Position numbers and translations under genes: made by a program. The notes beneath the pieces were generated by a model that was not told the DNA's origin, ran no database searches, and saw only the letters and a list, made by a program, of their open reading frames with translations. From NCBI GenBank assembly GCA_963734525.1, contig CAVTHI010000008.1:216450-280449 (forward strand): DNA of 64,000 nucleotides, written 5' to 3'. Positions within the stretch are counted from its first letter, which is position 1; each line of letters starts with the position of its first letter. Positions 42,908 to 45,631 of this stretch are shown piece by piece. The DNA is from an uncultured archaeon (GTDB taxonomy: Archaea > Micrarchaeota > Micrarchaeia > Anstonellales > Bilamarchaeaceae).

Positions 42908-43273
42908 TTAAAGCCGGATTGTCCGGATGCTGTTTTCCTTGTTCACGACGAAATCGAACGCTTCGCCGCCGGATTCGCGCTCCCGGACCGCCCCGAGCGC
43001 GTCGCGGACGGACCTGATGAACGAGTCCCATGAGGCATTTTCGGAAAACGCCCCGGAGATGGAATCACAGACGATTATTTTCCTCCTGCGGTCGAGGAGG
43101 GTGCAGAATACGCTGCTCCCGTGCTCGCTTACATGGATGCCGTACTCGGGCAGGGCGCTAGGCATCGGCTCTCCGGCCATGAGCGAGCCGAAGACCCTGC
43201 CGATGCCTTTTGCGGCATCGGACGAGACGGACGTGGCATCGCCGACCAGGTAGAGGGCATCAGGCATGGCCAA
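42908..43273 (-). CDS. Hypothetical protein, short 'Y family' paralog
   Basis: 121 aa. EYGIHVSEHGSSVFCTLLDRRRKIIVCDSISGAFSENASWDSFIRSVRDAL aligns with the other two members. Confidence 0.55.
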   Translation of the reverse strand: MAMPDALYLVGDATSVSSDAAKGIGRVFGSLMAGEPMPSALPEYGIHVSEHGSSVFCTLLDRRRKIIVCDSISGAFSENASWDSFIRSVRDALGAVRERESGGEAFDFVVNKENSIRTIRL

Positions 43274-43445
43274 TACGTCTGATAGCTCCTTCGGGGCGGA
43301 CGCCAGTCCCGCCCAGCATGTCCAGCACCTCGGCTTTCGCCACCTTGAAAGAATCTTCGGCCATAATGCCGCCGCCGCGGAATTTGCCCGCCTTGGCCTT
43401 GCGTGCGCGGGTTATCGGGATGACGACGCCTGCTTTTTCGCTCAT
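43260..43445 (-). CDS. Small hypothetical protein (61 aa), possibly leaderless
   Basis: MSEKAGVVIPITRARKAKAGKFRGGGIMAEDSFKVAKAEVLDML… A TTAATTTTAAA box lies ~30 nt upstream of the ATG. First gene of the minus-strand trio. Confidence 0.35.
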   Translation of the reverse strand: MSEKAGVVIPITRARKAKAGKFRGGGIMAEDSFKVAKAEVLDMLGGTGVRPEGAIRRIGHA

Positions 43446-43673
43446 GGATACATCGAAGGTTCAAACTTCTTTAAAATTAATGTGCCTCCGGGCGCTGCCC
43501 GGCTGGCGGCCCATTTAAACCAGATATAGTAATAAATTACAACAAAAATTCGTTTTTTTGCCAAAAAAAGCGCACTAAATGTTCTGAAAAAACACCACTT
43601 GACTCCAACTTTACGCACAGTCTGGGCAACATTTATATACATTATGGAACTAACCTATTATGGTTCATGCTCG

Positions 43674-43750
43674 TTTTGAAGTGCATGGGAGGATAACTGG
43701 TCGCCTTGCCAGCGGAGCGATCCGCTGGCCTAATTTTATTCACTTCAAAA
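43674..43750 (+). ncRNA. Candidate small structured RNA (nested hairpins)
   Basis: 10-bp outer stem UUUUGAAGUG/CACUUCAAAA (43674-43683 / 43741-43750) encloses an 8-bp helix CCAGCGGA-GCGA-UCCGCUGG (~43709-43728). TTTATATA box at 43632-43639 and a T-rich run after 43750. No family recognised. Confidence 0.25.
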
Positions 43751-43815
43751 ATTATTTTTCACTCCAGTGTTACCCATAGATAGGATTTAAACCCGCACGC
43801 CCCGAGGCGTTACAT

Positions 43816-43911
43816 ATGATAGAAATCGATGGCTCTTACGGCGAGGGCGGTTGGTTTGAACGGCGGCCCGTTCAAAGCCCACCCTCGCCATCAGGTGCTT
43901 CCAATGATTGA
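43816..43911 (+). promoter_or_regulatory. 31-codon upstream ORF / leader of rtcA that copies the first 12 codons of rtcA
   Basis: ATGATAGAAATCGATGGCTCTTACGGCGAGGGCGG (43816-43850) versus the rtcA start ATGATTGAGATAGACGGCTCTTACGGCGAGGGTGG (43904-43938). The uORF stop TGA 43909-43911 overlaps the rtcA ATG region. ATTTAAA box ~27 nt upstream of 43816. Imperfect ~18-bp hairpin at 43840-43889. Confidence 0.55.
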
Positions 43912-44869
43912 GATAGACGGCTCTTACGGCGAGGGTGGCGGGCAAATCATCCGCACCTCGCTCACTCTCTCGGCGATAACGCAGAAGCCGATACGAATCA
44001 CCGGCATCCGCGCGAACCGCCCGAATCCGGGCCTGCAGCCCCAGCACCTCACGGCGTGCAAGGCCGTGAGGAACGTATGCCGGGGAACGCTCGGCGGGGC
44101 GGAGATAGGCGGCAGGGAGCTGACATTCGAGCCCGGGCCGATTGTCGGGGGGAAATACGAATTCGACATCGGGACGGCCGGCTCCGTGACGCTCGTGGCA
44201 CAGGCCCTTCTCCCGATACTCCTTGGGGCGGCAAAGGAGAGCGAACTGAGGATAATCGGGGGCACGCACGTCATGAAATCGCCCGGTTACGACTATTTCG
44301 AGAACGTCTTCGTTCCTGCGGTGGGGCGCTTCGGCGCCGATGTCGATTGCCGGATGCTGAAGGCGGGGTATTATCCGAGGGGCGGGGGGGAAATCGAGGT
44401 GAAAATCAGGCCGTCCCGCCTTCATGGCAACGTCCTCTGGCCCAGCGGGGATGAGGAAGCGCAGGTCCTGATAAGGCTTTCCGGCCTCCCGCCGGCAATA
44501 GCGGTCCGCGAGAAGAAGATTTTCGTCCAGAATGGCATCGAGCGCATCCGCGTGCGCCAGGACGAATCACTGTCGCTTGGCAACGCGGTGACCGCATGGC
44601 GGGGATGCAGGGGCGCATACGCCCTCGGCGAGAAGGGGAAGCGCGCGGAGGCCGTGGCGCAGGAGACGTACGACGCGCTGAAGGCCGAGGACGGGGATGT
44701 CGACATGCACCTTGCCGACCAGCTCCTGCTTTATTCGGTCCTTGCGGATGGGCCGACAAGCTACTGCACGAGCGCCATCAGCGAGCATCTCCGGACAAAC
44801 GCCTATGTGATATCCAAGTTCCTGGACAGGAAGCCCGTTCTCACGGGCTCCCGCGTGGATGTCGGATGA
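43904..44869 (+). CDS. rtcA: RNA 3'-terminal phosphate cyclase
   Basis: MIEIDGSYGEGGGQIIRTSLTLSAIT…RANRPNPGLQPQHL…GTAGSVTLVAQALLP… AGGTG SD at 43893-43897. The track start 43829 adds a non-conserved extension and is rejected. Confidence 0.9.
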   Translation: MIEIDGSYGEGGGQIIRTSLTLSAITQKPIRITGIRANRPNPGLQPQHLTACKAVRNVCRGTLGGAEIGGRELTFEPGPIVGGKYEFDIGTAGSVTLVAQALLPILLGAAKESELRIIGGTHVMKSPGYDYFENVFVPAVGRFGADVDCRMLKAGYYPRGGGEIEVKIRPSRLHGNVLWPSGDEEAQVLIRLSGLPPAIAVREKKIFVQNGIERIRVRQDESLSLGNAVTAWRGCRGAYALGEKGKRAEAVAQETYDALKAEDGDVDMHLADQLLLYSVLADGPTSYCTSAISEHLRTNAYVISKFLDRKPVLTGSRVDVG

Positions 44870-44911
44870 ATTGCCTATATTTATAATCATTTTGTTATAT
44901 ATTTTGTAACA

Positions 44912-45631
44912 ATGAAAACCGCCAGAACCAGGTATATCTGCTGGGATTTGGACGAAACCCTGGGTTTCTTCCGCCCGGGAAAAAAATCCGAATTCATGAA
45001 AGGCCTGCCCTCGCTGCTGGAGGAGCTCCAGAAGAGGGGGGTCAGGAACCTGATTACGACGGCGTCGCCCTCATTATACGCAACGCTGGCGCTGAAGAGG
45101 ACGGGGACGGGCCATCTTTTCGACGCGGTATTCGGATGCGAGACGGTCTGCCCGGACAACAGGTACAAGAGATACGGGCCGGTGGCCGACTCGCTCGGCA
45201 TTCGCAGGCATGATGCCATCGACAGGATGCTTGTGGTGGGCAATGCGGACAGGGATTCTTCGGCCGACCTCGACCTCGTGACGGTCATCTACCCTGATGC
45301 TATAAAGAACGATGCATCGGTCGTGGCGGCCGTGCTCGGAAGGCTCATGGAACACGATTCATGGTGGTATGGCTTCGAAATGATGCTAAACGGAGTGAGC
45401 GCGCCCCGCAACAACGGCATTTTCGAAGGCGGGGAACTCCATATCGAGGATGTCCTGGTTTCCGTCGGCCGTGTCGGGGAAAACGACTTCATGCACAAGA
45501 ACGAGATGCTTGTTCTCGTGACCAGGGCGGGCGTCCACAGGCGCGCCGATATCGCATGCAAAGAAGAGCCCTTCGAAGTGCGGGAGCGGGAAGTCGAGGC
45601 TGCCCTTGCGGGCGCGGTCGCAGCAGTCTAG
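44912..45631 (+). CDS. HAD-superfamily hydrolase
   Basis: Motif I ICWDLDETLG, motif II ITTAS, motif IV VVGNADRD. Confidence 0.7.
   Translation: MKTARTRYICWDLDETLGFFRPGKKSEFMKGLPSLLEELQKRGVRNLITTASPSLYATLALKRTGTGHLFDAVFGCETVCPDNRYKRYGPVADSLGIRRHDAIDRMLVVGNADRDSSADLDLVTVIYPDAIKNDASVVAAVLGRLMEHDSWWYGFEMMLNGVSAPRNNGIFEGGELHIEDVLVSVGRVGENDFMHKNEMLVLVTRAGVHRRADIACKEEPFEVREREVEAALAGAVAAV

Follow-up and report, generated by a model that had tools for sequence, protein, structure and literature searches.

The 64,000-nt stretch of archaeal DNA analysed here, all of which we call the window, belongs to a genome of ~1.15 Mb with 60% G+C and contains at 43,751-44,869 the locus of rtcA, the gene of the RNA 3'-terminal phosphate cyclase. 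We found that the start and first codons of rtcA are present twice at this locus. The second copy is part of a short unit, with a hairpin, an antisense segment and a Shine-Dalgarno (SD)-like motif, that recurs at the start of rtcA in ~19 lineages of a family of very small, symbiotic archaea within the Micrarchaeota, namely "Bilamarchaeum" and two sister genera. Below we document the anatomy of this unit, its conservation, the covariation of its helices and the dynamics of its copy number between lineages. With moderate confidence we propose that it is a modular leader, in which RtcA would be made by termination-reinitiation, by SD-led restart, or by both, and whose arrays would change by recombination between repeats. 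The layout is new in that literature searches found no described family with this architecture.

The duplicated start of rtcA

The first start codon (ATG1) is at 43816 and the second (ATG2), which is the rtcA start, is at 43904, giving a period of 88 nt. The features of the locus are the following.

43785-43791, + strand: AT-rich box ATTTAAA, putative archaeal TATA box of the native rtcA promoter, ending 24 nt 5' of ATG1
43816-43850, + strand: copy 1, the upstream copy, with the start codon and first 35 nt of rtcA; the native gene start; 30/35 identical to 43904-43938
43816-43911, + strand: upstream open reading frame (ORF) of 31 codons (MIEIDGSYGEGGWFERRPVQSPPSPSGASND), in another frame than rtcA; its TGA (43909-43911) lies 5 nt inside rtcA
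43840-43850, + strand: S_up, codons 9-12 of copy 1 (GGCGAGGGCGG); 10/11 complementary to the antisense segment, a pairing that is not conserved in relatives
43855-43876, + strand: hairpin TTTGAACGG-CGGC-CCGTTCAAA, with arms 43855-43863 and 43868-43876 and loop CGGC; fold of -11.6 kcal/mol
43879-43889, + strand: antisense segment (AS) CCACCCTCGCC, 11/11 complementary to rtcA codons 9-12 (43928-43938)
43890-43903, + strand: spacer with the SD-like AGGTG (43893-43897)
43904-44869, + strand: rtcA, RNA 3'-terminal phosphate cyclase of 321 aa, from the unit-borne ATG2; Pfam RTC, E 3.1e-78
43928-43938, + strand: S_down, rtcA codons 9-12 (GGCGAGGGTGG), 3' strand of the AS:S_down helix

A sequence-only reading of this DNA had reported a 35-nt duplication 88 nt upstream of rtcA with five synonymous third-position differences. 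On re-measurement the two copies were identical at 30 of 35 positions, and the five differences (ATA/ATT, GAA/GAG, ATC/ATA, GAT/GAC and GGC/GGT) were all in the third position and all synonymous; both copies encode the peptide MIEIDGSYGEGG. The chance probability of at least 30/35 identity within 300 nt is ~6e-11. A weaker similarity between the copies (10/18) reaches ~18 nt 5' of both ATGs, and codons 3-5 of copy 1 (GAAATCGAT) match the native start of the unit-less relative L002. The same reading had described an upstream ORF of 31 codons, out of the rtcA frame and with a stop that overlaps the rtcA start, as well as an antisense segment perfectly matching 43928-43938 and having one mismatch to the upstream copy. 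Both descriptions were accurate: the TGA falls within ATGATTGA, and the complementarity is complete in the first case and 10/11 in the second. The ATTTAAA box that it noted 5' of the upstream copy is also present, and similar AT-rich boxes occur 24-35 nt 5' of the native rtcA starts in several relatives. Its suggestion that ATG1 is leaderless appears plausible.

The duplicated stretch occurs only once in the window's genome, and no other gene with a duplicated start and codons was found in that genome. An Rfam scan of 43000-45000 at E<=10 returned only chance-level matches to asX6 and MIR1437, and an exact-product look-up of the 321-aa protein and of a 346-aa protein gave no record. The latter would be the product of a long ORF at 43829-44869, which we rejected as a gene; it only reflects that the rtcA frame has no stop within the insert, and relatives do not conserve it as an ORF.

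The unit in related archaea

We searched for rtcA in all 40 genomes of the genus and inspected the 5' regions, and we performed pattern scans of 176 genomes of the order and of ~185,000 GTDB species genomes. Orthologues of rtcA are present throughout the genus. Positives were loci having an upstream copy and an AS match of at least 8/11 (7/11 in the decayed L021) that ends 13-15 nt before the start, and this uniform detector split positives from negatives cleanly. The carriers among the genus genomes, besides the window, are G023, G022, G011, G018, G003, G002, G014, G045 and G048, and G001 (L021) has a decayed form with the upstream start lost and rtcA intact. The pattern scans added the species genome G120 (L045) and the metagenome contigs L049, L050, L052, L053 and L054; the order scan added G153, which belongs to another genus of the same family; protein search and contig look-ups added L076-L080. 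Comparison of the rtcA leaders in related genomes, one of the checks proposed with the sequence-only reading, hence found the duplication recurring across all the lineages counted above. The unit core was found at no other gene and nowhere outside the family in the 176 order genomes or the ~185,000 species genomes; one metagenome match away from rtcA (L051) was a chance match. We also considered a miniature inverted-repeat transposable element or another mobile element derived from an insertion sequence. This was rejected, as the unit is confined to rtcA and no copies at other loci were seen in the window's genome, the 40 genus genomes, the 176 order genomes or the global scan.

The same comparison bears on whether the repeat is an artefact of assembly or a chimera, a doubt that the sequence-only reading had itself raised. 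Metagenome-assembled genomes can mis-join repeats, and the G045 contigs break at this locus. However, the arrangement occurs in ~19 lineages with lineage-specific sequence, from many studies and assemblers; L045, L050 and L054, which are one species, were assembled independently of each other and do not differ in their arrangement; and L049, a relative from another metagenome that has diverged from the window by 7%, carries the window's unit. Because of these last two observations we regard an artefact as excluded for all practical purposes.

Each unit consists of T, the hairpin, AS, a 13-15-nt spacer with an SD-like motif, a start and 12 codons, and the insertion point is after the second base of codon 12. 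Unit length is 81-143 nt (88 nt in the window), and a species has between zero and three units in variable order, AS always ending 13-15 nt before the next start. In two-unit species the hairpin types follow the order A,B in G023 and B,A in its close relative L052 and in G045. In all three the hairpin and AS remain linked to the copy that follows them, and the unit therefore runs from T and the hairpin through the start and 12 codons. The upstream-most copy is the native rtcA start: the upstream copy of L009, together with its flank, has its orthologue in the native start of L005 and L060, which carry no unit. The unit-borne ATG of G153 stands where the native sequence has TTA, so that the second start does not simply repeat native sequence. 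The repeat of L045 is 51 nt long (16 nt of leader and 35 nt) and its non-repeated core is 32 nt.

The length of the insert is kept in spite of changes in its parts. A 48-nt insert is found in four lineages with differing partitions into pre-stem, loop and spacer (4/4/13, 4/3/14, 4/2/15 and 3/3/15). The length classes of 83, 89, 92 and 143 nt differ by 6, 9 and 60 nt, which are multiples of 3. In L017 (G003) the hairpin loop has a 60-nt insertion of two perfect hairpins, ATAAATCGA/TCGATTTAT and ACAAAACGA/TCGTTTTGT, and despite this insertion the upstream ORF is still open and in the same frame.

In the structural alignment of 15 distinct units, pairing extends to 99% of the cells of the hairpin, which shows two compensatory pairs, and to 93% of those of the helix of AS with the downstream codons 9-12 (AS:S_down). 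AS covaries with the downstream copy at three wobble positions, as exemplified by GGC GAG GGT / ACC CTC GCC, GGT GAG GGC / GCC CTC ACC and GGA GAA GGC / GCC TTC TCC. At the two most variable wobble columns, 29/30 cells are paired in AS:S_down with 2-4 pair types, compared to 18/30 in AS:S_up (Fisher P 0.001). RNAalifold recovers both the hairpin and AS:S_down without imposed structure, and AS:S_down is 11/11 in L079, L080 and L053. Further compensatory stem variants are B (CTTGGACG/CGTCCAAG), B' (CTTGAACGG), D (CAGGAACGG/CCGTTCCTG) and a hybrid (TTTGGACG). Covariation thus supports the hairpin and the helix of AS with the downstream copy, not that of AS with the upstream copy; the hairpin of AS with the upstream copy, which the sequence-only reading had drawn, does not stand as the conserved pairing.

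The AS:S_down helix closes a loop of 37-39 nt (38 nt in the window) that contains the SD, the start and codons 1-8 and leaves all of them uncovered. In the window the two alternative conformations are isoenergetic (-34.2 vs -34.5 kcal/mol), and they are within 4 kcal/mol of each other in 9/15 units. Over all units, conformation D, with AS on the downstream copy, is equal or favoured, and in 6 units it is strongly favoured. The hairpin loop is between 2 and 62 nt long, a variation that suits a hairpin formed by a single strand. An operator in double-stranded DNA for a dimeric regulator, by contrast, would have its half-sites 2-62 nt apart while the stems covary, and it was ruled out. Two other readings of unit segments were also dropped. 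A unit-borne promoter with the hairpin 3' arm GTTCAAAG as TATA box, for which its distance from ATG2 would be suitable, fails because the corresponding B and D variants (CGTCCAAG and CCGTTCCTG) are not AT-rich and change by base-pair compensation, and for a tRNA-like T-arm at GTTCAAA no T-stem can be drawn.

The window's genome uses SD motifs: GGTG, GAGG, AGGT and GGAG are enriched 2.7-fold at -12..-9 of ATG starts. An SD-like 4-mer is present at -13..-9 of 15/16 unit-borne starts, compared to 8/23 native starts in unit-less relatives (Fisher P 2e-4). The upstream ORF is open through the insert in every intact unit, and in nearly all units it is out of the frame that follows and has its stop at -14..+11 nt of the next start, most often as ATGA. 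The overlaps of stop and start in the 83-, 89-, 92- and 143-nt units are ATGA, GTGA, TTGA and TAATG (+1/-2), and most 88-nt units (the window, L049, unit 2 of G045 and L080) have the ATGATTGA stop (+5). This stop is created by ATT GAR, found in the four examined downstream copies of 88-nt units and in L080. The downstream copy of L078 unit 2 uses ATA GAG and the upstream ORF stops in the spacer; in L078 the distance from stop to next start is 13 nt for the 88-nt unit 2 and 14 nt for the 89-nt unit 1. In G045 unit 1 the upstream ORF stops at +11. Units differ in the frame in which the upstream-ORF tail is read relative to the hairpin, all three frames being in use, and many units read AS as ..VQSPPSP... 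It is therefore nucleotide structure and total length that are kept and not the tail peptide.

In lineages with intact upstream copies, copy-to-copy differences are distributed 5/2/40 over codon positions 1/2/3, and ~7/47 changed codons are nonsynonymous, compared to about two thirds (~67%) expected if the upstream copy were neutral. The upstream copies of the window and L049 differ by 3 changes, all synonymous. In L008, L009, L055, L021, L076 and L077 the upstream copy has decayed. Overall the window and L049 diverge by 7.3%, yet they are identical over 43846-43965, a tract that spans the insert, copy 2 and 27 nt beyond it. For difference-free tracts of this kind the expected number is 0.02, and the tract begins at the left edge of the unit. 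It may reflect either constraint at the nucleotide level or a recent exchange of the unit.

On the RtcA tree the element needs 7-10 gains or losses, which are scattered and not clustered. The unit number differs between close relatives (0-3), as expected for a contingency (phase-variable) repeat locus; for instance, L009 has a unit and L005 and L060 are without one. L080 has two identical tandem 88-nt units, on a contig that begins inside the array, and such identity demonstrates gain by duplication. The unit-less L002 looks like a chimera, with a 5' part resembling copy 1 and codons 9-12 resembling copy 2. Units within one genome may be homogenised in their 3' part (G045, L078). The three assemblies of one species are identical, and therefore the unit is not hypervariable there.

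Other tandem duplications were seen in these genomes. The window's own genome (G000) has, at C6:75214 outside the window, an 87-nt tandem duplication by the start of a gene. Two copies of a 41-nt leader with GGATG at its end flank a GC-rich palindromic insert there; only 5 codons follow from the first ATG, and the duplication takes in no coding codons. In the unit-less L061 (G051), L059 (G054) and L063 (G043), unrelated tandem repeats lie between a small RNA and rtcA, for example a ~70-nt unit present twice in L061 and CATACYCAGGGCAAAGTTTCATCAAACC present twice in L059. The spacer upstream of rtcA seems prone to tandem duplication across the genus.

The restart reading and its alternatives

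The reading that we favour is as follows. A unit follows codon 12 of the native start directly, and for that reason ATG1, beside the native promoter, now opens a short upstream ORF. This ORF runs through the hairpin and AS and has its stop on or beside the unit-borne start, from which RtcA would be made by termination-reinitiation of the ATGA type, by SD-directed initiation, or by both. In untranslated RNA, AS would pair with the true codons 9-12 and close the 37-39-nt loop with the SD and the start, and a ribosome on the upstream ORF would have to open this helix; the antisense clamp and the hairpin would in this way shape the restart. Recombination or slippage between the direct repeats of 32-51 nt would gain, lose and reorder units, and because of this species would carry zero to three of them. 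Each added unit would be one further restart step, and loss would restore an intact gene. Translation of the upstream ORF, coupled restart and any regulatory benefit are what we infer from the anatomy and its conservation.

The proposal has precedents in coupling. In Haloferax volcanii, termination-reinitiation couples genes that overlap at ATGA (Huber et al. 2019, PMC6728339); an SD motif within the upstream ORF often makes it more efficient, and RNA structure has been proposed to suppress de novo initiation at the downstream start (PMC6728339). The rtcA leader resembles such gene pairs (PMC6728339) in its co-directional ORFs, whose stop and start overlap by 4 nt or 1 nt or are separated by very few nt, in the SD inside the upstream ORF and in the local structure around the downstream start. 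It differs from them in that its leader ORF has 25-48 codons of which the first 12 copy the downstream gene, and in that the module is iterated up to three times and carries a covarying antisense clamp on codons 9-12. The sequence-only reading had offered a coupling or attenuation device. Coupling gains from the open upstream ORFs that end on or near the next start and from the SD in 15/16 units, and attenuation loses from a conserved helix that pairs AS with the downstream copy and holds the SD and AUG in its loop.

Several points weigh against the proposed restart. The upstream frame is in frame with rtcA in G153 (period 87) and in L077, so the out-of-frame rule is a tendency and not a law. 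An ATGA is automatic in the right frame since rtcA begins ATG-AT, and the counts of units are not independent since the units share ancestry. The upstream ORF is dispensable in G001 (L021), as its start has decayed there with rtcA intact. A role of AS:S_down in the restart is conjecture because the helix leaves the SD and AUG uncovered. Finally, coupling alone does not explain the near-exclusively synonymous change of the upstream copies, for which precise skipping (at the level of RNA, ribosome or DNA), recombination with unit-less alleles and fast array turnover are possibilities.

A plainer explanation, which we take seriously as a less probable one, is a tolerated duplication-insertion without regulatory role. 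A tandem duplication with palindromic filler would have a single origin at the rtcA start in the ancestor of the family and would expand and contract by recombination between repeats, and the SD, the start, the 12 codons and the out-of-frame ORF would be kept for the expression of rtcA. The patchy distribution with many losses, the restoration of an intact gene by loss, the chimeric L002, the decay of upstream copies in six lineages, the tolerance of in-frame variants (G153, L077), the identical tandem units of L080, the leader-only 87-nt duplication at C6:75214 and the other tandem repeats before rtcA in relatives all agree with it. However, the hairpin and AS:S_down are kept by compensatory changes although RtcA is only ~65% identical between the lineages, and neutral 48-nt filler should randomise. 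The zero differences in the insert, copy 2 and the next 27 nt against a background of 7.3% (window vs L049) and the compensating indels that hold the insert total at 48 nt also speak against it. The 88-nt tandem-duplication remnant of the sequence-only reading is right about the origin and the dynamics of the unit, but the unit is no decaying relic, its hairpin and AS being kept by compensatory changes in a whole family. A comparison can also be made with integrative elements that use att sites at tRNA genes or gene ends, which restore the interrupted gene end and leave a partial duplicate. At rtcA, too, a replacement gene end is carried, the gene is intact and a partial duplicate remains, whereas the insert has only ~50 nt, is without integrase or cargo, is found at one gene only and stacks in tandem.

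An attenuator-type switch would make S_up and S_down compete for AS, with translating or stalled ribosomes (e.g. on the Pro-Pro encoded by AS) selecting the helix that forms and thereby matching RtcA translation to the condition of the translation apparatus. In bacteria, rtc operons respond when this apparatus is damaged. The three segments do have the formal 1-2-3 layout of leader-peptide attenuators, the two conformations are close in energy in many units including the window, and AS is often read as ..VQSPPSP... Compared to the ermC and cat attenuators, the leader likewise has a short leader ORF, alternative pairing segments and an SD-led start. Unlike them, its SD and AUG are sequestered by neither helix, its alternative helix is not conserved (AS:S_up is paired at 84.8% overall and in 7/15 in the column that varies most, and 6 units strongly favour conformation D), and it has no known inducer. 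There is also no conserved stall peptide, as the tail is read in three frames and only the first 12 residues, the RtcA copy, are conserved. We consider such a switch unlikely. Precise skipping of the unit is to our mind similarly improbable. The upstream copy would then be the working RtcA N-terminus in part of the molecules or cells, through excision and religation of RNA by a broad-specificity EndA and RtcB, through ribosome hopping from codon 12 to codon 12, or through rapid, reversible expansion and contraction of DNA, with high-frequency deletion between the repeats, in polyploid cells. In its favour is the apparent amino-acid-level constraint on the upstream copies, including the three synonymous changes between window and L049, and this pattern is also possible from recombination with unit-less alleles. 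Stacking of the hairpin on AS:S_down would juxtapose both unit boundaries, RtcB and two EndA homologues are encoded in the window's genome, and the G045 assembly breaks inside the array. The epsilon2 EndA of Micrarchaeota (ARMAN-2) has broad substrate specificity (PMC3239211), and phage T4 gene 60 provides a known case of a mobile bypass element with a hairpin (bioRxiv 10.1101/2022.08.31.505936). Against skipping, three independent assemblies of one species carry an identical unit, and an obligatory intron or bypass gap needs no conserved SD, start, 12 codons, open frame, stop-start overlap or fixed length.

The two known forms of skipping were compared in more specific terms. Archaeal mRNA can contain bulge-helix-bulge (BHB) introns, as in cbf5, and these share with the unit a short insert in the coding region, a host with EndA and RtcB, and an insert complementary to the adjoining exon. 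In contrast to them, the unit has no BHB, hBH or BHL geometry that would remove one period, and its insert keeps conserved translation signals. A scan of all units for canonical and relaxed (hBH, BHL) motifs with a 4-bp central helix at one-period spacing, +/- 45 nt downstream, gave nothing recurrent with flanking helices at a common offset, and nothing in the window; an unflanked TTTG:CAAA match was seen in A-type units beside the gene body. The excisable insert suggested in the sequence-only reading is thereby disfavoured, the more so as the SD, the start and the frame are kept inside it. Programmed bypass elements are known from phage T4 gene 60 and its mobile relatives, and the mitochondrial byps are likewise of this kind. 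They resemble the unit in a hairpin insert in coding sequence, matching Gly codons and an SD-like motif before the landing site. The unit's hairpin starts 2-5 nt after S_up and the flanking Gly codons are identical, but this match is trivial because the repeat itself produces it. Unlike a bypass element, the unit has its own SD, start and N-terminal codons, and its conserved frame and total insert length are unneeded for bypassing. The would-be take-off codon is followed by TGG, TTG, CTG, CAG or CAA and not by a stop or a rare codon.

Other features of the genome and significance

Directly 5' of rtcA, at 43617-43745, is a conserved small-RNA-like element. Its promoter box is TTTATATA (43632-43639), and it has a long terminal stem, a T-run and an apical hairpin, CCAGCGG-loop-CCGCTGG, for which relatives show covariation. 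The element accompanies rtcA throughout the order (L024, L027), has zero differences to L049, and had no Rfam match at E<=10. Towards the 3' end of the RtcB gene at G000 C1:56860-58174 (+), outside the window, the coding sequence is divided between two frames: ...GIYVKTSSYARPCRRG... is read in frame 0, and the canonical C-terminus RMRGLAEEAGAAYKDIDEV...VKG* is in the +1 frame from ~C1:58040. The split could be a sequencing error, a pseudogene or a programmed frameshift. The two EndA (tRNA_int_endo) homologues are at G000 C9:136738-137001 and C9:43283-43522, one of them within a 434-aa open frame that is compatible with the three-unit epsilon-type enzyme of Micrarchaeota. At G000 C6:9769, outside the window, part of a tRNA 3' end (21 nt, TGCGACCGCCGGGAATTGAAC) occurs a second time at a distance of 62 nt from the first copy, and it has the look of a split tRNA or of a scar left by integration at an att site.

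DPANN archaea have been cultivated barely or not at all, and to our knowledge almost nothing is known of the control of their gene expression. The rtcA locus provides a conserved cis-element supported by covariation, which combines an upstream ORF, a stop/start overlap, an SD and an antisense clamp and whose copy number varies between close relatives. It may serve as a system for studying termination-reinitiation and leader-ORF control in archaea, and for studying how a gene survives an insertion into its early codons by means of a replacement start. If skipping were true, at the level of RNA or the ribosome it would be a new case of recoding or splicing, and it would account for the near-exclusively synonymous change of the upstream copies; in the RNA-level version, the mRNA of an RNA-repair enzyme would itself be a substrate of RNA cutting and joining. 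With a version at the DNA level, archaea would have their first described case of a tandem-cassette translational rheostat or contingency locus. For the modular leader that we favour, the question opened is whether tandem leader cassettes act as an expression rheostat. The exclusivity of the unit to rtcA, the adjacent small RNA and the interrupted-looking rtcB point to a lineage-specific control of the RNA-repair pathway.

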